NCBI GenBank assembly: GCA_000165345.1
Contig: CM000436.1
Location: 416,001 to 480,000 of the forward strand
Direction of reading: 5' to 3'
Length of the DNA: 64,000 nt
A program made the translations under genes and the position numbers. The notes under the pieces are model-generated. The model was given only the letters and a program-made list of their open reading frames with translations. It did not search any database and had not been told where the DNA came from. Shown here in pieces: positions 6,806 through 59,964 of the stretch (its first letter is position 1; every line of letters begins with the position of its first letter).

Positions 6806-9800
6806 ATGCATACTGGGCGTAATATAGAGAGGCCGTCCATGGAAGGCTTCTCGAGTAGAGAAAAACAGTATGACTACTCGAATATACCAGGACGGCTTCA
6901 AAATGAATTGGAGTTTAAGGTTGAGGGTTTTAGAAGAAGGATTATGGAGATGATGAACAGTACCGAGGGGGGTACGAAGAACCGACTATATTCAAATATT
7001 CACAGTTATAAAAACTTTAATTTTCGAATAATGATTCTTCCAAAGGTTAAATTGACTAGTGGAGGTTCGTTAGAAGGTCATATTTCTGCTTATTTGGAGG
7101 CAATCCCATCGCAAAATTGGCCTTCAAACTGGGTATGGTTGAATACAAGATATTCTGTGACCTTAATTAACCAAAAAGATTACAGAAAATCTCACTTTAT
7201 GAGTGATATATTCAGCTTTAAAGGAGAAAATGACCCAAAGAAGAAACTTACATTGGAGGAGAGAAATTATGACTATAGCTCTGCAGGCCCAGAAGCCGAT
7301 CGTGGTTGGAGTGATTTTTTTAGCTTAAAGACTCTCTTGGATCCAAAAACTGGTTTTATTGATTCTGAGACAGAAACAGTAATTTTCAGAGCTGGTGTAT
7401 TTCCGGTTTTATGTGATCCAGTTTCGTGTGGAAAGTCAAATTTTGACCATTTGGGAACTGATCGATCACTAACTGGATATGTTGGAATTCGAAACCTTGG
7501 AGCTACATGTTATATGAACTCCCTACTACAATCTCTATATCATATTGGAAGATTCAGAAAAGCTGTCTATACTATTCCCCTGAACCCAAATAGAGTCACA
7601 TCAGGCTCATCATGTTCTAATACTCCGATAAGTAGAGAAACAAGACCTGAATTAACTCCTTTGAGTGCTTGTATTCCTAAGATAGATGATTTCGGAGAGG
7701 TCACTCCTCAAAGTATTAGTTCTGAATCTAATAGCCTTGCCATTTCTTTATTGGGAGAAGCCTCAGAGGATGCTGTAGAATGGACCAGTAATGTTGCAAA
7801 AAGTCTTTTTGAGTATGAAAGTGATGGTATTGCTAGTCTTGAAAGTATTATGTCTTCAAATGCATGCCAAGATTATGGACAGAATACCGGTGTAGTAAGC
7901 GGTAATGTATCTGGTCCGGGATCTACAATAGGAGGAAACTGCTCAGCTTCGGATGCTGGAAATGATCAAACGAAGATTAGTTCTGCTCTCCAAACCTTAT
8001 TTTACGAGCTTCAAACCTGTTCAGAACCTGTGAATTGTCGTGAACTGATGAGATCTTTTGGCTGGGATGCTTCAGATGCATTCACCCAACATGATGCACA
8101 AGAGTTAAATAGACTACTTTGTGACCGTCTTGAGGAGGAAATGAAGAATACTGCTGTTGATGGGAGCATTAAAGCTCTTTTTGAAGGAGAGTATGAAAAT
8201 TATATCGAGTGCTTGGATGTTGATTGTACTTCTAGAAGGAGAGAAAACTTTTACGACATTCAAGTTGATGTTGAAGGAGTAAAGTCATTAGAGGAAAGTC
8301 TCCAGCGTTTTGTAGAGGAAGAAATTTTGGATGGTGAAAACCTCTATGAGGCTGAGGGCTTTGGAAAACAGAGAGCAAAGAAGGGAGTTAGATTCCAAAG
8401 ATTCCCACCTGTTGTTCAGTTCCATTTGAAGAGATTCCAATTCAATATTCAAAGTATGGATATGGTCAAGTTGAATGATTACTTTACTTTTCCAGAAAAA
8501 TTGGATCTATCTAGCTTTGTGAATCATAATAATAAAGGAGAAACAGATACTGGTAATATTGTAGAAGGTACCGAAAAGTATATATTACATACTGTTGTCA
8601 TTCATCAGGGGGATGTTCATAGTGGACATTATTATGCCTATATACGTCCAAAACCTGATTCAGACTGGTTTAGATTTGACGATGAAAAGGTTACTCTAGT
8701 TTCATCTTCTACAGCTATTGAAGATAATTTTGGAGGCCATGAGTATGAAGTTTGGGATTATTTGGGAAACCCAGAAAGTGATATTCCAAAAAGATCCAAA
8801 ACCCACTCAGCTTACATCTTGGTATATGTTAGGGAGGACCAAGCTCAAGATTTGCTTTCGGAGCCAATTCCTCAGGAGGTCAATCCTGATTTAGTTTCTA
8901 AATACAGAAAAGAGATTGAGATGATGAATCTTCGAAAGAGACTTAGACAAGATCTGAATGAGCATGTTCGAATTCAATTATTGTTATCAACAAGTTATAA
9001 TATCTCATCCTCTTGTCGTCCAAAATCCCAAGGTCTTCATCAAAGTATTTCATCCTTCCCATGGAATTACATATTCAAATGTTCAAGGGACTTTTCTTTG
9101 TCTCAGTTCCATTCTGAGCTTGAAAAAAGATTCTTGAACAAAAGGATGCTTCATAATGATGTTCCTAGTAGTAGTATTAGTTGTAATAAAGCTTTTGGAT
9201 CTCATTTATTCCTTCTGGAAACCAACCCGGAGGGAAACCACACTGCTTCAGGAGGAGCAAGAGGAATGGGTGGATTACATCATCATATTGGATACTCAAA
9301 TGGAGGCCCTACATCCTCAACCGGTCTATCCTTTTATACATGCATTTCATCTCCCCAAGGAGAGGGAATTAGCTCTGGAAACCGGATATCAGATTCTCAA
9401 AGAGGCGGAGCTGGTGGAATGCTAGGTAGAGCTATTGGATTTGGAAGTTCAACTTCTGGTACAAGATCAGGAGATGAGATCTTAATGTCGGATCTATGTA
9501 GAAGATACCATCGTGCAGGCCTTTGGGACTCATCTTGCCCAACTTTATATATGTGTTTGTATCTTGATGATGTCTCAAGCTTATTAATGGACCGAATCCC
9601 TCCAAATCTACCAATTAATGCAGATGGTTCATATTTAGAGAAGAGACAAAGGATTGAAAATAAGCTCAGAAACTTTAATGATAATGGAGGAGGAGAAGTT
9701 TTGCTTCTCTTGAGATATTTTGATATCTCAAACCCTAGGATCAATGAATTCTCCTTAAAATACTCTAGAAATCAGGAGATTCCAAATCTTTATAATCTAG

Positions 9801-11629
9801 GACTTATCATGGTTTCTCAAAGCACCACACTTAAGGATTTAAATGAATATGTAATGATGGAGATAGAAAAAGATAAAGATAACAAGTCACCAGGTAGAGG
9901 ATTGATTAGTGGCTTTGAGTTTGGACTTAGAGTATGTCTGGAAACGGCTTCAGATAGTGATAATTTGTTCCCATTATTGGATCCTCGATGTACAATTCAA
10001 CAACTTCAGCTTATCAATGGATCCAGTTTAATCTTTTCAATAAATTTGGATGATTCAGTAATTAATAGAAAGAGAGAAGAATTAAGGAAATCTCTTGAAG
10101 AGGTTGTGATCTTCCCAAATCAAAACCTTTGGTTGCAAGAAGAGAAAACTTCTCAATATAATGGAATTGAAGATGAAGGAAAATCTTCTGAATCGGAAGA
10201 TTCTAGTTTCAGGCTTCCAGTAGAACTAGAGATGGTTAAGTGCCCAGAATTTCCAGTTTTGGACTTTCATCACTGGTATGAAAATTTCCAGAATTCTCTC
10301 CATCTTTCTCTATATCTATGGGATCCTCTAGATGGTGAATATCACCCGCCTCATTTGGGAGGAGGAGGAGGAGGAGGAGGAACGCATTTGTGCCTGCCTA
10401 ATACAAATCAATATGGAATAATGGAAGCCATGCAGGCGAGCAATAATAGTATAATACGCTCGTTTTCAAGGTATCAAATTAAAGAAGTACATCAAATTCA
10501 TGTGGATCTCCGCTGGCCAGCTATTAAGACTTGGATTTATGTTTGTAATCAAATCAAAGTAGATCCTAGAAGTATTGCTTTAGCAAGAAATGCACTGAAT
10601 CCACTAGATGCTTCTTTGCTAACTTTATTCTCTCTGATTCAAGCCCAGAGACATGATGAATCTATATCTTCAGTAATCAGAAGCTTAAGTTCAGCACATT
10701 ATTATGGAAAAATACCACGTTCTTTAGCTATCCTGGCTCTAAATCTGAAAGGTCACTCCTTTGTTAGTTTAAACAGAAAAGATAAGCATATTCTAACTGT
10801 GACCAATACTGTAAATTGTTCTGAAATACCTAAAGGAAGATACATCCTTCAGGTAGAATCCTGTGATACTGTGGATTCAGTCATACGCAAGTTAATAAAG
10901 AAGGAAAATATTTTATCTCACAGGTCCTTTAATACAAATGGTAAGGATGCCATGCAAACCGGAAATGGCGCCAAAAGTCACACAGATATTTCCAAGCTTA
11001 AATTAAGATTATTCGAAGCGAGTAACCAAAATGATCATGTTGGTGTATATCGAGGAGGGGAAATGATAACAAGGATTTTAAACACAGATGGAATGCAAAA
11101 TACTTCTACTTTTGGAGGATTATCTATTGGCTCTTTTGTGGATTGCTTTAGGATTGAACAAGATTATTCACAAGAAGAGTTGGATTTACTTAAAAAAGGA
11201 GAGTTAGTAAATATTTTGGTTATTCAGGATTCAAGGAGTGGTTTTGGCGGGAACTATGGAGATCATTACCATAATGATGATCATAATTCATTGGCTGGAG
11301 GTACAAGCTATTTAGTAACAATACCAGTAAGTTCAAGATTGGTAGATTTAAAGAATAAACTACAAGAAAGGTTTGATTTGGACGAGAAGATAATATCCAA
11401 ATGGAGATTTTACCGTCTTGAGTCAAAGAGTCTTCAAGGAATTAAGGATAATGATTTAATTATGAATAGTTTTGGAAATAATGGTGTTGGTATTAATAAT
11501 CACTATAGCACAAATGCAAAGAATAACGTGGACATTAATATATATGGTTTTGAGCCTCATACAATTTTATTGGCTCAACAAGTTTTTCCAATTCTACAAA
11601 AGAGTGGCTCTAGACCTCTGAAAATTTAA
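6806..11629 (+). CDS. Ubiquitin carboxyl-terminal hydrolase, USP7/HAUSP-like (N-terminal MATH domain plus USP catalytic domain with large lineage-specific insertions)
   Basis: MATH/TRAF-like N-terminus (FRIMILPKVKLTSGG...WVWLNTRYSVTLINQKD). Cys box GIRNLGATCYMNSLLQSLYH. QHDAQELNRLLCDRLEE box. His box YILHTVVIHQGDVHSGHYYAYIRP. Low-complexity inserts including a (GGA)8 poly-Gly run. Confidence 0.85.
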   Translation: MHTGRNIERPSMEGFSSREKQYDYSNIPGRLQNELEFKVEGFRRRIMEMMNSTEGGTKNRLYSNIHSYKNFNFRIMILPKVKLTSGGSLEGHISAYLEAIPSQNWPSNWVWLNTRYSVTLINQKDYRKSHFMSDIFSFKGENDPKKKLTLEERNYDYSSAGPEADRGWSDFFSLKTLLDPKTGFIDSETETVIFRAGVFPVLCDPVSCGKSNFDHLGTDRSLTGYVGIRNLGATCYMNSLLQSLYHIGRFRKAVYTIPLNPNRVTSGSSCSNTPISRETRPELTPLSACIPKIDDFGEVTPQSISSESNSLAISLLGEASEDAVEWTSNVAKSLFEYESDGIASLESIMSSNACQDYGQNTGVVSGNVSGPGSTIGGNCSASDAGNDQTKISSALQTLFYELQTCSEPVNCRELMRSFGWDASDAFTQHDAQELNRLLCDRLEEEMKNTAVDGSIKALFEGEYENYIECLDVDCTSRRRENFYDIQVDVEGVKSLEESLQRFVEEEILDGENLYEAEGFGKQRAKKGVRFQRFPPVVQFHLKRFQFNIQSMDMVKLNDYFTFPEKLDLSSFVNHNNKGETDTGNIVEGTEKYILHTVVIHQGDVHSGHYYAYIRPKPDSDWFRFDDEKVTLVSSSTAIEDNFGGHEYEVWDYLGNPESDIPKRSKTHSAYILVYVREDQAQDLLSEPIPQEVNPDLVSKYRKEIEMMNLRKRLRQDLNEHVRIQLLLSTSYNISSSCRPKSQGLHQSISSFPWNYIFKCSRDFSLSQFHSELEKRFLNKRMLHNDVPSSSISCNKAFGSHLFLLETNPEGNHTASGGARGMGGLHHHIGYSNGGPTSSTGLSFYTCISSPQGEGISSGNRISDSQRGGAGGMLGRAIGFGSSTSGTRSGDEILMSDLCRRYHRAGLWDSSCPTLYMCLYLDDVSSLLMDRIPPNLPINADGSYLEKRQRIENKLRNFNDNGGGEVLLLLRYFDISNPRINEFSLKYSRNQEIPNLYNLGLIMVSQSTTLKDLNEYVMMEIEKDKDNKSPGRGLISGFEFGLRVCLETASDSDNLFPLLDPRCTIQQLQLINGSSLIFSINLDDSVINRKREELRKSLEEVVIFPNQNLWLQEEKTSQYNGIEDEGKSSESEDSSFRLPVELEMVKCPEFPVLDFHHWYENFQNSLHLSLYLWDPLDGEYHPPHLGGGGGGGGTHLCLPNTNQYGIMEAMQASNNSIIRSFSRYQIKEVHQIHVDLRWPAIKTWIYVCNQIKVDPRSIALARNALNPLDASLLTLFSLIQAQRHDESISSVIRSLSSAHYYGKIPRSLAILALNLKGHSFVSLNRKDKHILTVTNTVNCSEIPKGRYILQVESCDTVDSVIRKLIKKENILSHRSFNTNGKDAMQTGNGAKSHTDISKLKLRLFEASNQNDHVGVYRGGEMITRILNTDGMQNTSTFGGLSIGSFVDCFRIEQDYSQEELDLLKKGELVNILVIQDSRSGFGGNYGDHYHNDDHNSLAGGTSYLVTIPVSSRLVDLKNKLQERFDLDEKIISKWRFYRLESKSLQGIKDNDLIMNSFGNNGVGINNHYSTNAKNNVDINIYGFEPHTILLAQQVFPILQKSGSRPLKI

Positions 11630-17190: not shown

Positions 17191-17424
17191 ATGGAATACC
17201 AAATATAAACTAGCCATTATATATTTAAGTAACTTTATATTAGAAATATAATACTTATAATACAATTCTAAAAATAATAATTATAATAATAAGACTATTT
17301 ACTTGTATTTATCATAATCTTTAATCTCCAATGTCTAAATTTTTAAATGTTATATAAAACTAATATTATTCTATAACAATAATGTATAAAATTTCGAGTG
17401 AATTTATTTATATATAAAAAAAAG

Positions 17425-17498
17425 CGCCGCCACTGGGGATCGAACCCAGGACCACATGGTTAAGAGCCATGCGCTCTACCTAGCTGAGCTATAGCGGC
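17425..17498 (-). tRNA. tRNA-Lys (anticodon CUU)
   Basis: Reverse complement reads GCCGCTA-TA-GCTCAGCTAGGTAGAGC-G-CATGG-CTCTTAA-CCATG-TGGTC-CTGGG-TTCGATC-CCCAG-TGGCGGC-G. 7-bp acceptor stem, D arm, 5-bp anticodon stem with loop CTCTTAA (anticodon CTT), T arm with TTCGATC loop. No encoded CCA. Confidence 0.85.
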
Positions 17499-38109: not shown

Positions 38110-38751
38110 TTAGAGCTTCTCCTGAACTCTTTTAGAGACTATTCTAAGGTGGTTGTAGACTTTTCCAGGAGGAGTTCCCAAAATTAAACTACATAGAGCA
38201 TCTCTTGCTAATTTAATATTATGAAAGGCTCCCATTAAATGGAGTTTCTGACCAGCTAAGACAATCCTAGTTCTGGTTGAATTTTCTATAGCATACTTTG
38301 TTTTACCATCCCTACCAGAAATACGACCAATACAACGTGACAAATGTGCTCCATTCAATCTTTTTACGTCTTTAATTTCAAAGCTTTCTATATAAAGATC
38401 ATCCAATCTCAAAAGAGCAATGGCATCTTGAAGCTCAAATCCAAGTAGAAAAGCCTTAATAAAGTCAACTCCTTTTTGAAGAGATCCAATATCAGTGCAA
38501 TCTGGCCCATATTTAAGCTCTACACATCTTCTCTTTGTATTCATTCTTACATGTAATCCCATATGTTCTACCAAAGGAGTAACAATATTAATCCATTGGT
38601 TCTTTAAAGGAGTCATTCTATTTTCAGGAACCATCACTCTTCTTATTTCATTACTTCTGTTAACTTCTGTTCCAGTTAAAGGCTTAAAAGGTCCTTCAGT
38701 CCGTCTCTCCTCCTCAACCATATCCATATCCATACTCTTTGTTTCTCCCAT
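38110..38751 (-). CDS. PNO1: KH-domain pre-40S ribosome biogenesis factor Pno1/Dim2
   Basis: Near full-length alignment to Pno1: MTPLKNQWINIVTPLVEHMGL ... GSLQKGVDFIKAFLLGFELQDAIALLRLDDLYIESFEIKDVKRLNGAHLSRCIGRISGRDGKTKYAIENSTRTRIVLAGQKLHLMGAFHNIKLARDALCSLILGTPPGKVYNHLR. Confidence 0.85.
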   Translation of the reverse strand: MGETKSMDMDMVEEERRTEGPFKPLTGTEVNRSNEIRRVMVPENRMTPLKNQWINIVTPLVEHMGLHVRMNTKRRCVELKYGPDCTDIGSLQKGVDFIKAFLLGFELQDAIALLRLDDLYIESFEIKDVKRLNGAHLSRCIGRISGRDGKTKYAIENSTRTRIVLAGQKLHLMGAFHNIKLARDALCSLILGTPPGKVYNHLRIVSKRVQEKL

Positions 38752-39308
38752 ATGTAATAAACCTAAAGAAATATACTTCTAAGATATCCAATTCTTCTTT
38801 TCCCTACAAAAATCTACTCTGGAAAAATCTTAATAATCTCCTCCTTAATTATTCTTCTTCGCTGCTTAACTCTATTTTATACCGTCAAAATTAACCATTG
38901 GGTGTGCCCGCCTAAAAGTTGGCGCCGAAGGCTTAAAAATGGGTTTTTGGAGGGGAAAGTCATCTTAAGAATAAAAGAAAGAGGAAGATGTGGAATATAT
39001 TTTATTAGAAGAAAAAGTGTTGAAATGTAATGAGAGTGCTTTAAAAGATATAGGTGTGAAAATCGGACTACATTCATGTGAGGTTAAATCTGTTACTTGG
39101 AATGTAATGTTATTTAGTGTTAATAATAGAGGTAATTTATATGAATTACTATTATAACATAAAATTTATATGGATTAAAATAAGATTAAAAGGAGAAGAA
39201 TTAGTAAGAAACAATATTCTTAGAAATAAATAAGAACTTTAGAAGCTTAAAAAAGCAAAATAACAAAATCTGTGCAACAGTAATAGCTTTAACTAAGGTT
39301 TTTAATCA

Positions 39309-40523
39309 ATGATGATTACAAAAGGAGGAGATTACTCAGAATATTCAGAAATACATACACAGGATATTGAGAAATCTAAAGATTATGACCAAGAATGTGT
39401 AGAATTAAGGAAAAGTGTGAGAGAATATCTCGAAAAAGAAAGCAAAATAAACTTATACTTTTCAGAAAAGAAGAGTTATTTGATAAACAAAGAATTTGTA
39501 GATATTCAGGTCCAATTAAACTCACAACTTTGCCCAAAAGTTAAACTTTGGAAACGAATTGAAGAACCAAACTCAAAAGAATTCTCCAAATTAAAAAATA
39601 ACCCAACTCAACATCTTTTTGCAATTAAAATCTATTCAAAACCCCAACTCATTCGGAGAAACATTGTCTATTCTTCAGACAGGAAAATCAGGACCCAAAT
39701 GCATCGTGTAATTAACGAAATCAAGATTCTACAATTCCTTGCAAAAACCGATCCCACATACTACTATATTGCTAAATTACACAAAGTTCTTGAATCTTTT
39801 CCTTCTACCTTATCTTCCGGAAAATTGTATCTCATCTTTGACTTTTTTCCGATTGGACCCACAATGGCGCCCGACACAGGGGCAAGGCGCGCGCGCGCGT
39901 GCCCGGGGTTTGAAAAGAATCTTTTAGTGTATACTCCAAGTCCTGCATTAGAGAGGACAGAGGTAAGTATAAGGAGAATGGCTTACTGTATTGGAGTAGC
40001 TCTATCTAGACTTCATGAGTTAGGGATTGTTCATAGAGATGTAAAACCTGATAATATTATGCTTACACATACTGGAGATGCATTTTTGAATGACTTTAAT
40101 TCTGCAGAATTTTTAATTCAAGGTAAATATGTTCAGGGCACTGAAGGAACATATGCATTTTTTCCTCCTGAGCATTGTAATATAAACAACAATAGCAATA
40201 AAATTGTTACTGAAAGGAACGAATCATCCGAAATCAATGAACAAGAAGAATGTTCCCAATCTACGCTCCAATTGGGATGTCCAGCAGATATGTGGGCTCT
40301 TGGAGTCACAATTTGGTGTTGGTTTTATGGTACACTACCTTTTCAAGGAAATAGTATTTTAGAGCTTTTTGACAATATTACAAAATGTAAGATTGAGTTC
40401 CCTAGACAGCCTACTTTATCAAATGAGTGTATTAATGCCATTTTGCATCTTTTAGACCCAGAACCGAATTCCCGTTGGACTGCTCGTCAGTTTCTTGAGT
40501 CCGACTGGTTTTCTAAAAACTAA
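39309..40523 (+). CDS. Divergent Ser/Thr protein kinase with a GC-rich insertion in the catalytic domain
   Basis: Kinase subdomains FAIKIYSK (VAIK), EIKILQFL (alpha-C Glu), LYLIFDFFPIG (hinge), IVHRDVKPDNIML (catalytic loop), DFN instead of DFG, GTEGTYAFFPPE (APE-like), DMWALGVTIWCWFYGTLPF. Confidence 0.75.
   Translation: MMITKGGDYSEYSEIHTQDIEKSKDYDQECVELRKSVREYLEKESKINLYFSEKKSYLINKEFVDIQVQLNSQLCPKVKLWKRIEEPNSKEFSKLKNNPTQHLFAIKIYSKPQLIRRNIVYSSDRKIRTQMHRVINEIKILQFLAKTDPTYYYIAKLHKVLESFPSTLSSGKLYLIFDFFPIGPTMAPDTGARRARACPGFEKNLLVYTPSPALERTEVSIRRMAYCIGVALSRLHELGIVHRDVKPDNIMLTHTGDAFLNDFNSAEFLIQGKYVQGTEGTYAFFPPEHCNINNNSNKIVTERNESSEINEQEECSQSTLQLGCPADMWALGVTIWCWFYGTLPFQGNSILELFDNITKCKIEFPRQPTLSNECINAILHLLDPEPNSRWTARQFLESDWFSKN
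39866..39915 (+). repeat. GC-rich island with an alternating (CG)6 tract (GGCGCCCGACACAGGGGCAAGGCGCGCGCGCGCGTGCCCGGGG) inside the kinase CDS
   Basis: About 80% GC over roughly 50 nt in a genome of about 30% GC. Encodes an in-frame insertion (MAPDTGARRARACPGF) between hinge and catalytic loop. Confidence 0.8.
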
Positions 40524-40966
40524 TTAAATTAACCTAAATTTGCTACCTTTAATTATTATTACTGACATTTTTTTCCGATACCCTTATTTTCTCTTTGCAT
40601 GCATGCATGTAGTTCATTCCTAGAACTCGAACATTTGGGTTTCACTGCCATAATTTAGAAAATAAAACTTAAATAAAATACTTAAAATACTTATTACTAA
40701 TAATAATGATAATAATAATCGAGGTCACATATCTTTTTCTACTTTTATTTAAAAAAAAATACATAGAAATATCATTACGATGTTTTTTTTTATCTGTAAA
40801 ATGTTTTTTAAAAAAAGAAAATATATCAATTCCCGATTCTATTATTGGCCCATATAATGCTTCATAGTGTATTATCATCCTCCGATTTACTCCACTTTCG
40901 ATTCTTTTATTCCCATCTAATGAGGAATTTTTCTTTTGTCCTTTCCTATTTTATTATCATCTTTTA

Positions 40967-46347: not shown

Positions 46348-47787
46348 TTAACCCCATGTCTCCTTTAAAATAGTTGATAAATCCTCCTTTGTAACTGTTG
46401 CAGGATTTGTATGAATAGCTTCATCACTTAAAGCTCTAGAAATCATTCTATCCAAGTTCATTTGTAATGTATTGAAATTTAAATTATCAATTACACTCTT
46501 TTTACTAAGAATTGGTATTGTCCTCAATGCATTTTCTTCTGTAACATAGGCTCGAGTTTCTTTATCAGATATTGAAAATGATCCAGATACATGATTGATA
46601 AATTCTTGATTATCTATTTCTATACATTGCGAGAATACTGACAATTTAACACCTATTGGGTCAAACCATCCTTTAGACTTGAAATTAGATAGAGAAGAAT
46701 GAATTGAACTGAGAGAATCTGGAAGTAAGAGAGTCTTTTTTATTTCATCAATTCTGTTTAAAAGTGCCTGTATTTTATTAGAATTTGAATCTTCTGGGTT
46801 ACTTATTCCAAGTTCAACTGAAAGATTTGCAATCAAAGGCCCCACAGTCTGGCTTTTCTTTATATTAAAGTTGAGCACTTGAGTAATCACAATACTGTCA
46901 ATAAGTCCATGAGGAAGTGTAAATACTTCTGAAATACTTCTGGATAAGATTGTTCCAAGACCTACATCAGTTGCTGAAATTGCAACTCCAGATATTGAAG
47001 CAGCCTTATGGATTTCTTGCAATAAACTAATATCCTTCTCAATGACAGCTTTAGTCAAACTATTAAATAAAATTCTTAAAGACTGAATAGCCATACATGA
47101 TGAATAATGGTTTGAAGAATTACTAATGTAAGACTCTAATCCATGAAGAAGAGCTCTCATACCTGTAATAGAAGCCACAAACATTGGAATTGTTAATATG
47201 AAACTCGAGTCTATTACTGATATATCTGGTAAAAACGCCACACCTGAAACTATCATTTGTCTGCCATCATCATTCCTTAAAACCGCCGTAGATGTCACTT
47301 CTGACCCAGAACCACATGTTGTCGGAATGCATACCAACTTCTTTATTAAACTCCCTCTTCTATGTATCATTGCCTTTTTTGAACTCTTTTCCTTATCATT
47401 ATTGTTAGTTCCCATTGCAAGTGAACGCAAAGTCGTATTCGGATCCTCGTATAAAACTCTTAGTACTTTTGCTATATCCATACAATGTCCTCCACCCATC
47501 CCTATTATACAGTCAGGCTTATATGATTTCATCTGCAAAAGAATTGTGCTTAATGCATTCGCATCTGACTCACATAGCTCAGAAAACTCTATTTGAATTC
47601 CATTCTTCTTCACCATCGACTCAACTCTCATCGCCTGACATTTTACTGCTGAAGAAAATACCAATATGGCTCGCCCCACATTTGAATCCAACAAATCTGA
47701 GATTATATCTCTAAAGGAATCCATATTATAGTATATTATTGGTGTAAGAATTAACATTTTTTTTATCTTAACAACTATATTAATCAA
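46348..47787 (-). CDS. Iron-containing alcohol dehydrogenase (Fe-ADH family), monofunctional paralog of the AdhE C-terminal domain
   Basis: Fe-ADH motifs KPDCIIGMGGGHCMDIAKVLRVLYEDP and KLVCIPTTCGSGSEVTSTAVL. Collinear with the ADH half of the adjacent AdhE (KPDCLIGFGGGSPMDASKLVRLMYEHP and RFICIPTTSGTGAEMTPFAVI). Confidence 0.8.
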   Translation of the reverse strand: MINIVVKIKKMLILTPIIYYNMDSFRDIISDLLDSNVGRAILVFSSAVKCQAMRVESMVKKNGIQIEFSELCESDANALSTILLQMKSYKPDCIIGMGGGHCMDIAKVLRVLYEDPNTTLRSLAMGTNNNDKEKSSKKAMIHRRGSLIKKLVCIPTTCGSGSEVTSTAVLRNDDGRQMIVSGVAFLPDISVIDSSFILTIPMFVASITGMRALLHGLESYISNSSNHYSSCMAIQSLRILFNSLTKAVIEKDISLLQEIHKAASISGVAISATDVGLGTILSRSISEVFTLPHGLIDSIVITQVLNFNIKKSQTVGPLIANLSVELGISNPEDSNSNKIQALLNRIDEIKKTLLLPDSLSSIHSSLSNFKSKGWFDPIGVKLSVFSQCIEIDNQEFINHVSGSFSISDKETRAYVTEENALRTIPILSKKSVIDNLNFNTLQMNLDRMISRALSDEAIHTNPATVTKEDLSTILKETWG

Positions 47788-49116: not shown

Positions 49117-51714
49117 TTAATGTTCTGGATATCTGACAAATCCAGAATAAGCGTCAATATAGAGTTGTTTAATCTCATTTAAAAGAGGGAATCTTGGATT
49201 AGCTCCCACACATTGATCATCAAGAGCATGGATACTCATAGACTCAACTTTTGACATATAATGTTCTTCCTCTATTCCATGATCTTTAACACACATTGGA
49301 ACTTGTAATGTTTTCTTGAGATTTTGTATTGCTTCAACTAGAATTCTAATATTAATACTCTCTTGATCCAAATTACTATCAAAGCTCTGATTGGACTTGA
49401 AATGCAAGATATCAACAAGCTTTGCATATCTACTCTTTGCTACAGGATACTTGTACTGAGATAGAATGGACTGTTTTGTTGGTCTATTAGATGCATTGTA
49501 AGAAATAATATGTGGTAAAAGTATTGCATTTGCAATTCCATGTGGAATATGCATTTGAGCTCCCAGTTGGTGAGCTAGAGCATGGCAAATTCCAAGAAAA
49601 GCATTTGAGAATGCCATACCAGCAATAGATGAAGCATTGTGTACATATTCTCTTGCCTTGGCATCTGCATTGATAACAGAGTTTGGCAAATGATCGAATA
49701 TAAGTCTCATAGCTTGAATGCAAAGTCCATCAGTGTATTCAGAAGCATAGGTTGCAACAAAAGCTTCAAGGGCATGTGTTAGAGCATCTAAGCCAGTTGC
49801 AGCTGCAAGGAACCTTGGCATAGAAAGAACAAAGTTGGCATCAACAATGGCCATATCAGGAGTAAGCTTGTAAGAAGCAATAGGATATTTGATTCCAGTG
49901 CTGTTATCAGTAATTACAGCAAATGGAGTCATTTCTGCTCCAGTACCAGAAGTAGTAGGAATACAAATAAATCTTTGAATTTTTCCACCGCTGGGAGGTA
50001 GTTTGACAATTCTCTTTCTAATATCCATAAATCTAGTAACAACTTCATTCCATTTGACAGTTGGATGTTCATACATAAGCCTTACAAGCTTGGAAGCGTC
50101 CATAGGAGAGCCTCCTCCAAAACCAATAAGACAATCTGGTTTGCTTACATTTAATCTTTTAACAATTTCCTTGACAGTTTCAACATCAGGTTCAGGAGGG
50201 ACTTCTGCAAACATCTCAGAGGCTACTCCTACAGACTTGAGACCTTCAATAAGATTATCAACAAACCCAAGACTAACCATGACTCTATCAGTAATAATGT
50301 AGGCTTTCTTTAAATTGATTTCTTTGAGATCTTGTAAAGCTTCTTCAAGGCATCCTCTATTGAAATAAATAGAAGGTGGAACCTTAAACCAGGAGATGTG
50401 GTCCCTTCTTTGTACAACTTGCTTGTAATTAAGCAAATGTTTTACACCAATTCCCTCAGCTGTTGAAGTATGGCCCCAGGAACCACATCCCAAAGTCAAA
50501 GAAGGAGTTTGACGGAAGTTAAACATTTCACCCATTGCTCCTTGAGCAGCTGGCATGCAAACTAGAACTCTTCCAGTGGGAATGCTTCTCTGGAACTCAG
50601 TAATTCTGCGTTTTCCTTCATCAGAATTTGGGTCAGTATATATACAAGATGTGTGTCCCAAACCACCAAATTCAACTAAGGCTTTTGCCTTGGAAACACC
50701 ATCATTAAAGTCGCTAGCTCTGATGATTGACAATACAGGACACAACTTTTCGTGAGACAGTTTCTCCCCTCTTCCAATTTCGTTGATTTCAGCAAGAATC
50801 ATAACAGCATCTTTTGGGATATCAATGGATGCCATCTTTGCGATTTCAACTGCACTAATTCCAACAGATTTAGGATTCATATTTCCATTTTCGTCAATTA
50901 ATAAATTCCCAAGTCTCTGGAGCTCATCTTTTGAAGAAATGATATGTACTCCTCTATTTTTGAATCCAGAAATCAACTTATCATATACTGAATCTAGAAC
51001 CACCAAACATTGTTCGGATGCGCAAATTAAACTGTTATCAAATGTTTTGGATAAAATTACTGAGTTCACAACCATTTCCAAATCTGAGAGTTCATCAACT
51101 AATACTGGTGAATTTCCTGCTCCTCCTCCCAAGGCTGGTTTTCCACATGAATAAGCTGCCTTCACCAAAGCCACTGAACCTGTTGCTAGAATGGCACTGA
51201 CAGAGCTATGGTTCATTAAGGAATTACATAAGGAAATACTTGCAACATCGATCCAACCAATACAATCCTCTGGAGCTCCTGCTTCTATTGCTGCATCCCT
51301 GATAATTTTGGCTGCTCTTATGGAGCTTCTAGCAGTTCTTGGATGAGGAGAAAATACTATGCAGTTTCTTGTCTTAAGGGAGATGAGGGATTTGAAGATC
51401 GTTGTAGATGTTGGATTTGTACATGGAGAGATTCCTGCCAAAATTCCCAATGGTTCAGCAACAATATCAATTCCTCCAAATTCATCATGTTCAATTACTC
51501 CTACAGTCTTTGTATTTCTGTACTTATTATAAATATTCTCTGATGCAAAGTGATTCTTTATTATCTTATCCTCTAACAATCCCATTCCACCATCTTCTAT
51601 TGCTAATACTGCCAACTCATATCTTGCACAGTTTGCTGCCAAGGAAGCTCTTTGAAAAATATAATCAACTTGCTCTTGAGAAAGTTTTAAAAAAGCTTTC
51701 TGAGCTACTTCCAC
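49117..51714 (-). CDS. adhE: Bifunctional acetaldehyde-CoA / alcohol dehydrogenase AdhE
   Basis: N-terminal ALDH domain (MEVAQKAFLKLSQEQVDYIFQRASLAANCARYELAVLAIEDGGMG ... ) fused to a C-terminal Fe-ADH domain (GFGGGSPMDASK ... ICIPTTSGTGAEMTPFAV ... HALAHQLGAQMHIPHGIANAILLPHIISYN). 865 aa, the canonical AdhE length. Confidence 0.95.
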   Translation of the reverse strand: MEVAQKAFLKLSQEQVDYIFQRASLAANCARYELAVLAIEDGGMGLLEDKIIKNHFASENIYNKYRNTKTVGVIEHDEFGGIDIVAEPLGILAGISPCTNPTSTTIFKSLISLKTRNCIVFSPHPRTARSSIRAAKIIRDAAIEAGAPEDCIGWIDVASISLCNSLMNHSSVSAILATGSVALVKAAYSCGKPALGGGAGNSPVLVDELSDLEMVVNSVILSKTFDNSLICASEQCLVVLDSVYDKLISGFKNRGVHIISSKDELQRLGNLLIDENGNMNPKSVGISAVEIAKMASIDIPKDAVMILAEINEIGRGEKLSHEKLCPVLSIIRASDFNDGVSKAKALVEFGGLGHTSCIYTDPNSDEGKRRITEFQRSIPTGRVLVCMPAAQGAMGEMFNFRQTPSLTLGCGSWGHTSTAEGIGVKHLLNYKQVVQRRDHISWFKVPPSIYFNRGCLEEALQDLKEINLKKAYIITDRVMVSLGFVDNLIEGLKSVGVASEMFAEVPPEPDVETVKEIVKRLNVSKPDCLIGFGGGSPMDASKLVRLMYEHPTVKWNEVVTRFMDIRKRIVKLPPSGGKIQRFICIPTTSGTGAEMTPFAVITDNSTGIKYPIASYKLTPDMAIVDANFVLSMPRFLAAATGLDALTHALEAFVATYASEYTDGLCIQAMRLIFDHLPNSVINADAKAREYVHNASSIAGMAFSNAFLGICHALAHQLGAQMHIPHGIANAILLPHIISYNASNRPTKQSILSQYKYPVAKSRYAKLVDILHFKSNQSFDSNLDQESINIRILVEAIQNLKKTLQVPMCVKDHGIEEEHYMSKVESMSIHALDDQCVGANPRFPLLNEIKQLYIDAYSGFVRYPEH

Positions 51715-58815: not shown

Positions 58816-59911
58816 TTGCAAAAATGCAGTATCGTCTGTGAGGATATTTTATCCAAAAGATATTGTGAATTAGGAAATAGGTATTTAAGGTTAGATTGGT
58901 TAGTTTTATTAATTTTTGAGAAGGAAACAAGGATGAATTTCCCTTACTTTTTCTGGATTATATTTTCAATATTGATTTGCAAAGTTAGATTAGAGGTTGT
59001 CATAGAGAATGAAGACCCAAAAGCGGATATGAGTGCACTGGAACATTTAGATTCAAGCTTCATGCAAGACAGAGGGAGTGTGGGGATTGAGAATTTGAGT
59101 TCTAATATTGATTTATCTGCAGGTTTTGCAGATAATGAAGCACAGGATAATTCGAATTTAAGCATGGATAAACCAATTGAGGGGATTGATAATGAGAAGT
59201 TTTCTATCGAAGGTTTGGATACAAATGATGGTTTTGAAGAAGTAAAAGATTCAAGTTTCCAAAATCAGCTTGATATTGAGGAAAATAAAAATAGTGATCA
59301 TTCAGTAGGAAATGGTATATATTCAGAAGATAGTATTTTGAATGGAAGCTTTGAGAGTAAGTCAGTTGATTTGAACGATGTAGATAAAGTTTCAGCAGAA
59401 AACAATTTAAATGATAAATTTGAAAATTTGAGCTTTTCAGATAAAAGTGTTGGAGGTTTTGATGAGCAGGGCAAAAATAATGATTTTCCTGAAATAGAAG
59501 AGAACCAGAAAGATTTTTCCAGCGTTGGAAAAGATTTTTCATTAGCAAATAAAGAATCAGGTGAAGAAAATTTACCCGGGGAATACACCTCAACAACAGT
59601 AGTGGAAAGAATGGACTCAGATCAACAAGATTCTCGGTCTAGCATGTTTCGAGAAAGCACTCTTCCAACTCCGCCTCCACAAACAACTGAATCCACAGAA
59701 GTGACTGGTGGTGGTGGTGGTGGGGGAAATGGCAATGGAGGAGGATTCCCAAACACTTCAACATCTGTACCAACAGAAACAACAACAGGTTCCGGAGGTA
59801 GTGGAGGGGGTAGTGGAGGAGGTAGTGGAGGAGGTAATGGAGGAGGTAGTGGAGGAGGTAATGGAGGAGGTAGTGGAGGCAGTGGAGGCGATGGCGATCA
59901 AAACCAAGTGG
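58816..59911 (+). CDS. Mucin-like type-I membrane glycoprotein, exon 1 (signal peptide most likely from the Met at 58933; acidic S/N-rich ectodomain; Thr/Pro then Gly/Ser-rich stalk)
   Basis: MNFPYFFWIIFSILICKVRLE signal-like segment. Ectodomain ends TLPTPPPQTTESTEVTGGGGGGGNGNGG ... TSTSVPTETTTGSGGSGGGSGGG ..., a mucin-like O-glycosylation stalk. Donor G|GTAGGTTA at 59912 (the same GTAGGTTA donor as Sld5 exon 1). Confidence 0.6.
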
Positions 59912-59964
59912 GTAGGTTAAATTTTTATGATATTCTATACGAACTCTGACTTTTATTTTTTTAG

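Follow-up and report, generated by a model that had tools for sequence, protein, structure and literature searches.

A GC-rich island within the coding sequence of a Cryptosporidium parvum kinase gene and its candidate E2F/DP-type sites

The window analysed here, which is the whole 64-kb stretch of DNA, has a GC content of 32%, and within it a kinase gene carries a 44-nt core (39865/6–39908/9) with a GC content of 84%. This raises the question of what the segment is and what maintains so extreme a composition in AT-rich surroundings. The core is the highest-GC stretch of 44 nt in the 64 kb, with the runner-up at 68% and the 99.9th percentile at 64%. The GC content is 76% across 39866–39915, 33–34% in the 300 bp on each side, and the flanks drop to 33% within a few bases. 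The sequence GCGCGCGCGCGC at 39887–39898 is the sole (GC)n or (CG)n run of three or more units in the window, and strict purine-pyrimidine alternation of G and C spans 13 nt (39887–39899). The description in the initial annotation, of a GC-rich island with alternating CG inside a kinase gene of AT-rich DNA, is borne out by these values. The positions of the features are given in Table 1.

Table 1. Features of the kinase locus, in window coordinates
Feature	Position	Strand	Remark
GGCGCC box in the divergent promoter region of a PNO1-like gene (38110–38751, minus) and the kinase	38921–38926		
CaMKK-like Ser/Thr kinase CDS, 404 aa	39309–40523	+	C. parvum Iowa II EAZ51464.1
Hinge codons G183-P-T-M186	39855–39866	+	Aligns to GPVM of the CaMKK2 hinge
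GC island, codons M186–G200 (MAPDTGARRARACPG)	39864–39908	+	84–86% GC; unique GC maximum of the window
ATGGCGCC, 8-mer containing the E2F/DP-like core GGCGCC (39866–39871)	39864–39871	+	Invariant in 9 species
GGCGCGCGCGCGCG, alternating GC tract; (GC)6 at 39887–39898; invariant core GCGCGCGC at 39889–39896	39886–39899	+	
TGC CCG GGG, 3' extension of the island confined to the C. parvum group; includes CCCGGG	39900–39908	+	
FEKNLLVY codons, second half of the hinge-to-alphaD insert	39909–39932	+	Conserved
Catalytic loop HRDVKPDN, residues 242–249	40032–40055	+	Alignment of 10 sequences

The host kinase and its loop

The island lies in frame within its ORF, with F201 following directly, between the hinge and the catalytic loop, and this agrees with the extra in-frame segment that had initially been read at this place. 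The 404-aa product is 100% identical to "protein kinase [Cryptosporidium parvum Iowa II]" and matches Pfam Pkinase (PF00069, E = 8e-29). In an alignment of 10 sequences, the catalytic Lys (K107), the alphaC Glu (E137), H242-R-D244 and N249 of the catalytic loop and the Mg-binding Asp (D262) are invariant, as are seven of the eight columns of the catalytic loop, with V245 nearly so (I in C. muris). The hinge residues G183 and M186 are likewise invariant, and P184 nearly so, in 10 aligned sequences from 9 species. Searches of the PDB with phmmer returned CaMKK2 (9.7e-19), CaMKK1 (1.6e-18) and STK11 (1.2e-14), and the top 19 Foldseek matches to the kinase model were all CaMKK1/2. The kinase has the hinge GP[TV]M, the HRD catalytic loop and the C-lobe in common with CaMKK1, CaMKK2 and LKB1, the upstream kinases of AMPK/SNF1, which are its best matches in sequence (E ~1e-18) and in fold (target-normalised TM-score 0.81–0.88). 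As judged from these comparisons, the host gene is a eukaryotic protein kinase on the CaMKK/LKB1-like branch, with putative catalytic activity. It is atypical because no glycine-rich GxGxxG loop was found before FAIK in the 10-sequence alignment and because the DFG motif is replaced by DFN (D262-F-N264), which is invariant across the genus. No counterpart of the Arg-Pro-rich insert of CaMKK was seen. In one source, the orthologue from C. hominis carries a name that relates it to Elm1p/Pak1p, which activate SNF1. Literature searches by accession, by locus tag and by kinome/CaMKK terms returned no paper on this kinase gene.

The sequence alignment to CaMKK is interrupted exactly at residues 188–232, where the kinase has around 22 more residues between the hinge and alphaD/alphaE, the first 14–15 of them coded by the island. 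In a structure predicted from an alignment of 107 sequences (mean pLDDT 84.8), residues 189–206 form a coil, residues 191–200 have the lowest confidence in the kinase core (pLDDT 56), and a short strand at 207–210, within FEKNLLVY, pairs with residues 186–188. As modelled, the island codes for the tip of a lineage-specific surface loop directly after the hinge. A second low-confidence insert is predicted at residues 291–320.

Lineage-specific inserts of low complexity are known from apicomplexan protein kinases, and they normally match the AT bias of the genome. The loop resembles these in being a poorly conserved surface loop of variable length in a conserved kinase core, but differs from them in containing the most GC-rich 44 nt of the window and in gaining GC. 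Both its sequence and its length vary across the genus, and the loops of C. bovis and C. muris are longer, AT-rich and rich in Asn, Asp and Ser. The sole difference between the protein of a C. parvum variant and that of Iowa II is C198R, within the island. The second half of the insert, FEKNLLVY, is conserved across the intestinal clade, with L-V-Y retained also in C. bovis and C. muris, and its substitutions are mostly synonymous among the species compared, a pattern by which it is under purifying selection at the protein level. The tryptic products expected from the island are a peptide ending FFPIGPTMAPDTGAR and the peptide ACPGFEK.

The island as part of the coding sequence

An assembly or contamination artefact, a recent insertion such as a captured promoter fragment, and an unspliced intron had all been put forward initially as readings of the island. 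The alien composition is the one point in favour of an artefact, of contamination, or of foreign or promoter DNA newly inserted in this isolate. Against it, the exact protein, island included, is present on at least 23 independently assembled contigs (30 index blocks), with four assemblies of chromosome scale and numerous independent run assemblies among them, and the three contigs compared do not differ in the 45-nt island. The segment is also found at the same codons in nine other species of the intestinal clade, namely in C. hominis, C. tyzzeri, C. meleagridis, chipmunk genotype I and C. ubiquitum, in a weaker form in C. felis, and in three further Cryptosporidium assemblies. This reading is therefore ruled out for practical purposes. 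Across ten species the reading frame is open, with no stops and with indels of whole codons. Comparison with sister species had been suggested at the outset, conservation as coding sequence in relatives being named there as grounds for dropping these readings, and such conservation is what was found. Because many sister species have the island, all three of the initial readings (artefact, recent insertion and intron) fail.

An unspliced or retained intron would follow the gene model of C. ubiquitum, in which the annotated protein is without 18 residues and a modelled GT..AG of 54 nt spans the GC tract and FEKSLL. The C. ubiquitum gene range translates straight through, and the intron was therefore modelled in frame. 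The GT used in this model is lacking at the corresponding place from C. parvum, C. hominis, C. tyzzeri, C. meleagridis and both of two GC-rich species, and the AG is missing from chipmunk genotype I and from one of the GC-rich species. No usable GT-AG pair was found in the C. parvum island, where the sole GT..AG read is 29 nt long and shifts the frame. The open frame and the whole-codon length differences also argue against splicing, as does the position of FEKNLLVY, with its protein-level constraint, inside the modelled intron. Moreover, the modelled segment is GC-rich against surroundings of around 32% GC, and it is kept as coding in the gene models of C. parvum, C. hominis, C. meleagridis, C. 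tyzzeri, C. felis and chipmunk genotype I. An intron here is thus very improbable, and the 54-nt splice in C. ubiquitum is probably an annotation error. From these comparisons the island is a genuine, old and translated part of the kinase gene throughout the intestinal Cryptosporidium clade, which settles the compositional outlier as real coding sequence and flags the C. ubiquitum gene model.

Proposed constraint at the nucleotide level

Twelve of the 14 third codon positions in the island are G or C, against a background GC3 of 0.27 (P = 8e-6), and this is the sole 14-codon window to reach 12 among the 15,089 examined in 23 ORFs. The other six low-GC species likewise show an elevated GC3 at the island. 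The residues A-R-A are written GCG-CGC-GCG, although GCG makes up 5.5% of Ala codons and CGC 2.0% of Arg codons. At four-fold sites where two distant GC-rich species both have G or C, C. parvum retains it at 5/5 sites in the island and at 9/33 elsewhere (P = 0.0015).

Two stretches, ATGGCGCC and GCGCGCGC, are invariant in six lineages amid a fast-evolving stretch of protein, with residues around and between them varying freely. Few invariant nucleotide runs in the gene are longer than these two, and ATGGCGCC ties for second-longest. Conserved residues (M-A-P and A-R-A) dictate part of both, leaving no more than about five synonymous sites to carry the signal. The alternating GC run, counted by eye, is 8–13 nt long in nine species and 6 nt in C. 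felis, with none in C. bovis and C. muris. When applied to the seven low-GC species only, the codon-invariance test is weak, with 40–45% of four- and six-fold codons invariant anyway, and weight is therefore placed on the distant GC-rich comparisons, on GC3 and on the direction of substitution. The species compared are related, and the conservation tests are consequently not fully independent.

Between C. parvum and C. hominis, the island has diverged at 6/36 positions and the rest of the gene at 30/1176. The excess consists of AT-to-GC change only, with GC-to-AT change at the background rate. Ancestral A/T sites have changed at 8/10 positions in the island (4/4 under strict polarisation), compared to 10–14% elsewhere (P = 7e-6 and 1e-4, respectively). 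The ancestral state of 39900–39908 was roughly GGY TCN GAA, and it has been altered by AT-to-GC changes in the parvum clade. Together, codon usage, conservation and substitution direction suggest that the extreme GC content does not simply follow from the amino acids and that a force at the nucleotide level maintains it.

One account of these data is an ordinary lineage-specific kinase loop that has no function as DNA, its GC content reflecting Ala, Arg, Gly and Pro together with a local neutral quirk, either a (GC)n microsatellite that maintains itself or a narrowly confined hotspot of GC-biased repair or conversion. It agrees with the variability of the loop across the genus, including its long, AT-rich form in C. 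bovis and C. muris, with its hypervariability between close species, and with the location here of the single C. parvum variant difference. A mutational or conversion bias could equally yield the AT-to-GC excess, and no promoter transcript was matched in the part of the lncRNA supplements that was searched. The amino acids, however, cannot account for a GC3 of 12/14. Known conversion tracts are also much less sharply bounded than the island, the edges of which return to background composition so abruptly. A microsatellite is at odds with the absence, across ten species, of repeat-unit length variation and of indels in the tract, which differs by substitutions only over a run of 6–13 nt, and slippage would leave the separately conserved ATGGCGCC unexplained. 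A loop of this neutral kind is a realistic possibility, if somewhat improbable.

The island could instead act in RNA or translation, as a rare-codon cluster or a stable GC hairpin between the codons of the N- and C-lobes that slows the ribosome and assists co-translational folding. The codons GCG, CGC, CCG, CCC and GGG each make up 2–9% of their synonymous family, they cluster immediately after the hinge, and folding 90 nt gives an MFE of −28.5 kcal/mol. The stability of this fold does not, however, exceed that of dinucleotide shuffles (z = −0.08), and a consensus fold of the ten species has 0 compensatory pairs, with a covariation term unfavourable to structure. As there was also no match to an Rfam family, a structured RNA was rejected. 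In addition, species with a GC3 of around 0.6, in which these codons are unlikely to be rare, keep them too, and the conserved feature is two specific 8-mers and not rarity itself. A role in RNA or translation is accordingly improbable.

Alternating purine-pyrimidine GC is the sequence type most prone to adopt the Z form under negative supercoiling. The sequence criterion for Z-DNA is a (CG)n tract of about six units or more, and (GC)6 at 39887–39898 is of this length, in keeping with the initial description of the tract as Z-DNA-prone. The strict alternation over 13 nt is likewise that of known Z-DNA-prone tracts, and formation of Z-DNA here would be a prediction from sequence alone. Such tracts would leave the neighbouring conserved GGCGCC of the island unexplained.

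Candidate E2F/DP-type sites in the exon

The constraint proposed on the DNA is most likely explained by exonic candidate sites of the E2F/DP type. The core of the Cryptosporidium E2F/DP1 box is 5'-[C/G]GCGC[G/C]-3', typically TTGGCGCCAAA (Oberstaller et al., 2013, PMC3734150; Li et al., 2021, PMC7840661). According to the literature, this core is more common than any other upstream motif in C. parvum, is the principal motif of sporozoite ATAC-seq peaks (dataset in bioRxiv 10.1101/2025.01.17.633476), and ranks first among motifs in the 100 bp upstream of C. parvum lncRNAs, which are mostly antisense. The CpBGF annotation contains 766 lncRNAs. The identifiers cgd1_1560 and cgd6_1430 denote E2F, and cgd7_3650 and cgd8_1850 denote DP. 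Cryptosporidium is the only apicomplexan genus known to retain E2F/DP (PMC12246861).

Dinucleotide shuffles predict 0.87 occurrences of the core SGCGCS in the window, and 18 are present, an excess of around 20-fold that chance does not explain. Eleven of the 13 places at which it occurs are outside ORFs (P = 3e-5); of these, ten precede an ATG by 170–360 bp and the remaining one by 774 bp. The island contains GGCGCC at 39866 and five overlapping SGCGCS cores (GGCGCG/CGCGCG) at 39886–39899. A resemblance to an E2F-like promoter box had been remarked on initially, and it is real because the 9-mer ATGGCGCCC of the island recurs at a promoter position, 22903, which is 180 bp upstream of an ATG. 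On the minus strand the island reads CGCGCGCCTTG, which is close to CGCGCGCCTGA, scored as E2F/DP1 upstream of Cp_lnc_124.

The sites in the island do differ from the promoter box. The full [A/T]SGCGCS[A/T], T-rich on its 5' side and A-rich on its 3' side, does not occur there, the flanks being T-GGCGCC-C, A-GGCGCG-C and G-CGCGCG-T and each site thus having one A/T flank, whereas both A/T flanks are present in 8/11 intergenic SGCGCS sites. The second candidate site is an extended (GC)6 run and not a single box. The sites also lie 557–590 bp inside the CDS and not in non-coding DNA around 170–360 bp upstream of an ATG. On neither strand does an ORF start at a suitable distance from them, leaving no obvious gene to drive. 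The gene identifier, 10-mers of the island and 13–15-mers of the kinase were absent, on both strands, from the searched part of the lncRNA supplements.

A box with the same core is present at the kinase locus itself (38921), 170 bp upstream of the ATG of the PNO1-like gene and 388 bp upstream of that of the kinase. It is kept at −328 to −392 in every island-bearing species with upstream sequence compared, and is absent from the loci of C. felis, C. bovis and C. muris. The conservation of the island sites across species is comparable to that of this box.

The reading that we tentatively lean towards is a real coding loop, the DNA of which doubles as an exonic pair of E2F/DP-type sites: GGCGCC and then, 20 bp downstream, the alternating GC tract. 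Under this proposal, a force acting on the nucleotides would maintain the high GC content and, in the C. parvum clade, would still be raising it. The protein would tolerate the DNA motif because the loop is weakly constrained, leaving its codons free to serve the motif. The pair may form an exonic cis-regulatory module, acting as a promoter within the gene, possibly in both directions, of an antisense or internal transcript, or may alternatively be a site inside the gene through which the kinase's own transcription is modulated. The stronger claim, that a functional E2F/DP module opens intragenic chromatin and starts such a transcript, or tunes the kinase in another way, and that it has been kept since the intestinal clade arose and is still gaining strength by AT-to-GC change in the C. 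parvum lineage, is plausible but unlikely.

Codons of dual use, or duons, which are exonic transcription factor sites, have been described in humans and plants (bioRxiv 10.1101/2021.09.06.459186; PMC6790085). The island resembles them as a coding stretch in which synonymous positions are apparently constrained by a DNA motif and not by the protein, but differs in that its dual use is proposed from composition and conservation. Literature searches returned no duon-type element reported for Cryptosporidium or other apicomplexans, and nothing on Z-DNA or exonic transcription factor sites in Cryptosporidium.

The E2F box is the dominant promoter motif of Cryptosporidium, the genome of which is compact with scarce regulatory DNA. 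If the island is without function, its very local and directional AT-to-GC evolution would constitute a small, unexplained fixation bias in a window of 32% GC. As synonymous CRISPR recoding is feasible in C. parvum, the island would make a clean test case. A functional exonic E2F/DP module, if true, would be the first dual-use coding and regulatory element described in an apicomplexan, and a conserved E2F-like pair in the codons of a weakly constrained loop would show that this parasite recruits coding sequence for regulation.

A GC-rich, translated loop segment in a CaMKK-like kinase

The island reported in the initial annotation, with its alternating tract in a kinase gene, was confirmed in all particulars. 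A 44-nt window at the island reaches 84% GC, higher than anywhere else in the 64 kb (runner-up 68%; window overall 32.1%), and it holds the window's single (GC)n run with n ≥ 3. It is translated in frame as M186–G200 of the 404-aa kinase.

The ORF product is 100% identical to "protein kinase [Cryptosporidium parvum Iowa II]" (EAZ51464.1), whose 90%-identity cluster also includes the C. hominis, C. meleagridis and C. tyzzeri orthologues, and is assigned to Pfam Pkinase. CaMKK2 is its closest solved sequence, followed by CaMKK1 and LKB1, and the best PDB neighbors of its AlphaFold model (107-sequence alignment; pLDDT 84.8, pTM 0.88) are CaMKK1 and CaMKK2. Alignment to CaMKK2 is interrupted from query residue 188 to 232, a stretch in which CaMKK2 is ∼22 residues shorter. 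As the model has a coil at 189–206, flanked by short strands (186–188 and 207–210), and the kinase-core confidence minimum (56) at 191–200, the island is predicted to encode the tip of a surface loop directly after the hinge, a frequent site of lineage-specific kinase inserts. Residues 291–320 form a second low-confidence insert. K107, E137, the HRD loop, N249 and D262 are all intact; there is no recognizable glycine-rich (GxGxxG) loop at residues ∼75–107, before the FAIK lysine, and DFN (262–264), invariant genus-wide, replaces DFG. By sequence this is an atypical CaMKK-like kinase, possibly with unusual regulation. Gene and protein already have database entries, and a loop of this kind is nothing unusual; the literature search found no paper dealing with this kinase gene or with E2F sites in Cryptosporidium exons.

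The three origins initially proposed for the island did not hold up. An assembly or contamination artefact is excluded by the exact 404-aa protein being encoded on at least 23 contigs (30 index blocks), drawn from four chromosome-scale assemblies and otherwise from many independent sequencing runs, and by the identical 45-mer in the three contigs compared. A codon alignment was built with orthologous DNA from C. hominis, C. tyzzeri, C. meleagridis, chipmunk genotype I, C. ubiquitum, C. felis, C. bovis, C. muris and three further Cryptosporidium assemblies. The segment lies in frame at equivalent codons in all ten intestinal-clade species, with length differences of whole codons, which excludes a recent insertion and shows the island to be conserved as coding in relatives. 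In C. bovis and C. muris the loop at this position is longer, its DNA AT-rich and its residues rich in Asn, Asp and Ser. Substitutions in the adjoining FEKNLLVY (TTT GAG AGG AAC CTT CTA GTG TAC in one intestinal-clade assembly) are mostly synonymous, and these residues are therefore translated.

The annotated C. ubiquitum kinase (P0004, 385 aa) has 18 residues fewer at the island than its DNA encodes, because the gene model excises an in-frame 54-nt GT..AG "intron". These 54 nt encode GSRCARAGSDLKFEKSLL, including the conserved FEKSLL, the DNA is open throughout and the GT..AG boundaries are not conserved among orthologues; the intron is probably an annotation error. The lone GT..AG pair read in the C. 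parvum island spans 29 nt and shifts the frame. The open frame kept across ten species, the unconserved boundaries and the mostly synonymous change in FEKNLLVY exclude an unspliced intron. The island belongs genuinely to the gene: it is ancient, is translated, and codes for part of a loop in a CaMKK-like kinase.

Coordinates of the island and other features of the window
Feature	Position	Strand	Remark
Kinase ORF	39309-40523	+	404 aa
Island ATGGCGCCCGACACAGGGGCAAGGCGCGCGCGCGCGTGCCCGGGG	39864-39908		
Codon of C198R	39900-39902		in island
Orthologue of C. ubiquitum modeled intron	39880-39927		L001 (LRBP01000014.1) 2066-2119
Promoter box	38921		between PNO1-like gene and kinase
(GCAT)n / TGCATGCA block (AP2_1-like)	40590-40620		3' intergenic, between convergent kinase and V-ATPase B genes
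Perfect E2F-type box AATGGCGCCAAAAG	10967-10972		SGCGCS match inside plus-strand ORF 6806-11629
tRNA-Lys(CTT) gene	17424-17498	−	accounts for another GC peak (64%, 17425-17468)
Iron-type alcohol dehydrogenase gene	46348-47757	−	
Iron-type alcohol dehydrogenase gene	49117-51585	−	
GGCGCC box	47940		183 bp upstream of alcohol dehydrogenase gene
Antisense ORF	59639-60328	−	229 aa
Gene overlapped by antisense ORF	58933-59949	+	Gly/Ser-rich repeat protein, GGAGGTAGTGGAGG-type repeats

Codon choice and an inferred nucleotide-level constraint

Codon usage was computed over 23 ORFs of the window, leaving out the antisense ORF, which has a third-position GC (GC3) of up to 14/14 and is almost certainly spurious. 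Overall GC3 is 0.25, and GCG makes up 5.5% of Ala codons, CGC 2.0% of Arg, CCG 4.8% and CCC 6.3% of Pro, and GGG 8.7% of Gly. The island has a GC3 of 12/14 (P = 8e-6), a value that it alone reaches among 15,089 14-codon windows; GC3 is also raised there in every low-GC species (9–11/14), and is 2/14 in C. bovis and C. muris. Judged by its codons, the amino acids do not account for the composition of the island. A rare-codon pause is a possible explanation for the codons, but species with GC3 near 0.6 retain the same ones. The kinase coding sequence has 49–52% GC and GC3 ∼0.6 in two Logan assemblies (L004, SRR31861040; L005, SRR31860986) and C. felis (L006), compared with GC3 of 0.27–0.37 in the C. 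parvum group, a large base-composition shift within the intestinal clade.

At 4-fold sites sharing G/C in two distant GC-rich species, C. parvum retains 5/5 in the island and 9/33 elsewhere (P = 0.0015), and ancestral A/T became G/C at 8/10 island sites compared with 10–14% outside the island (P = 7e-6; 4/4 under stricter polarization, P = 1e-4), with G/C to A/T changes at the background rate, all on small counts, parsimony polarization and related species. Among low-GC species, 40–45% of 4/6-fold codons are invariant regardless of the island. Two blocks within it, ATGGCGCC and GCGCGCGC, are unchanged in six lineages and are the joint second-longest invariant nucleotide run of the gene; the residues surrounding and separating them vary freely. 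Between the close species C. parvum and C. hominis the island changes faster (6/36 differences, compared with 30/1176 elsewhere in the gene; P = 3e-4), and this surplus of changes has a direction, from A/T to G/C. The sole amino-acid difference from Iowa II in a C. parvum variant protein (P0127, Logan assembly) is C198R in the island, presumably a TGC to CGC change, which would lengthen the GC tract. We infer that a nucleotide-level force holds the GC-rich codons, and has extended them in the C. parvum clade.

Microsatellite slippage is unlikely to have made the tract, with zero indels within it across ten species. GC-biased conversion would not be expected to yield edges as sharp as those of the island, whose flanks (300 bp each side) have 33–34% GC. 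An explanation through RNA structure is not supported, as the fold of the island (z = −0.08 against shuffles) shows no covariation and no Rfam match.

E2F/DP-type motifs in and around the kinase gene

The motif [C/G]GCGC[G/C] (TGGCGCCA; SGCGCS), attributed to E2F/DP, ranks first in abundance among C. parvum upstream motifs (PMC3734150), dominates sporozoite ATAC-seq peaks (bioRxiv 10.1101/2025.01.17.633476), and is the top motif ≤100 bp upstream of mostly antisense lncRNAs (PMC7840661). The window has 18 matches (0.87 expected) at 13 places, 11 of them outside ORFs (P = 3e-5), ten at 170–360 bp 5' of an ATG and one at 774 bp. The only exceptions within ORFs are the island and TGGCGCCAAAA at 10967; the latter would make a suitable reference for E2F sites in exons. 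The two adjacent alcohol dehydrogenase genes, one of them bifunctional (AdhE-like aldehyde/alcohol dehydrogenase, 822 aa), each have a GGCGCC box upstream.

The promoter box at 38921 is kept in all island-bearing species with upstream sequence compared. Since GGCGCC or (GC)5-6 immediately precedes the TGCATGCA block in C. hominis, C. tyzzeri and C. meleagridis (L010, L011, L009; ∼+1279 to +1295 from the kinase ATG), these relatives have, 3' in the gene region, another (GC)n/E2F-like element of variable form, which C. parvum Iowa II lacks, apparently via a short deletion.

A pair of exonic E2F/DP-type sites is the best candidate for the force holding the GC-rich codons, although the island sites differ from typical boxes in lacking A/T on one flank and in lying 557 bp within the coding sequence. 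That such a DNA-level element maintains the island is a tentative proposal, with chances slightly short of even, and full function as a promoter or regulator appears unlikely. The regulatory reading of the island is a plausible hypothesis that lends itself to testing.
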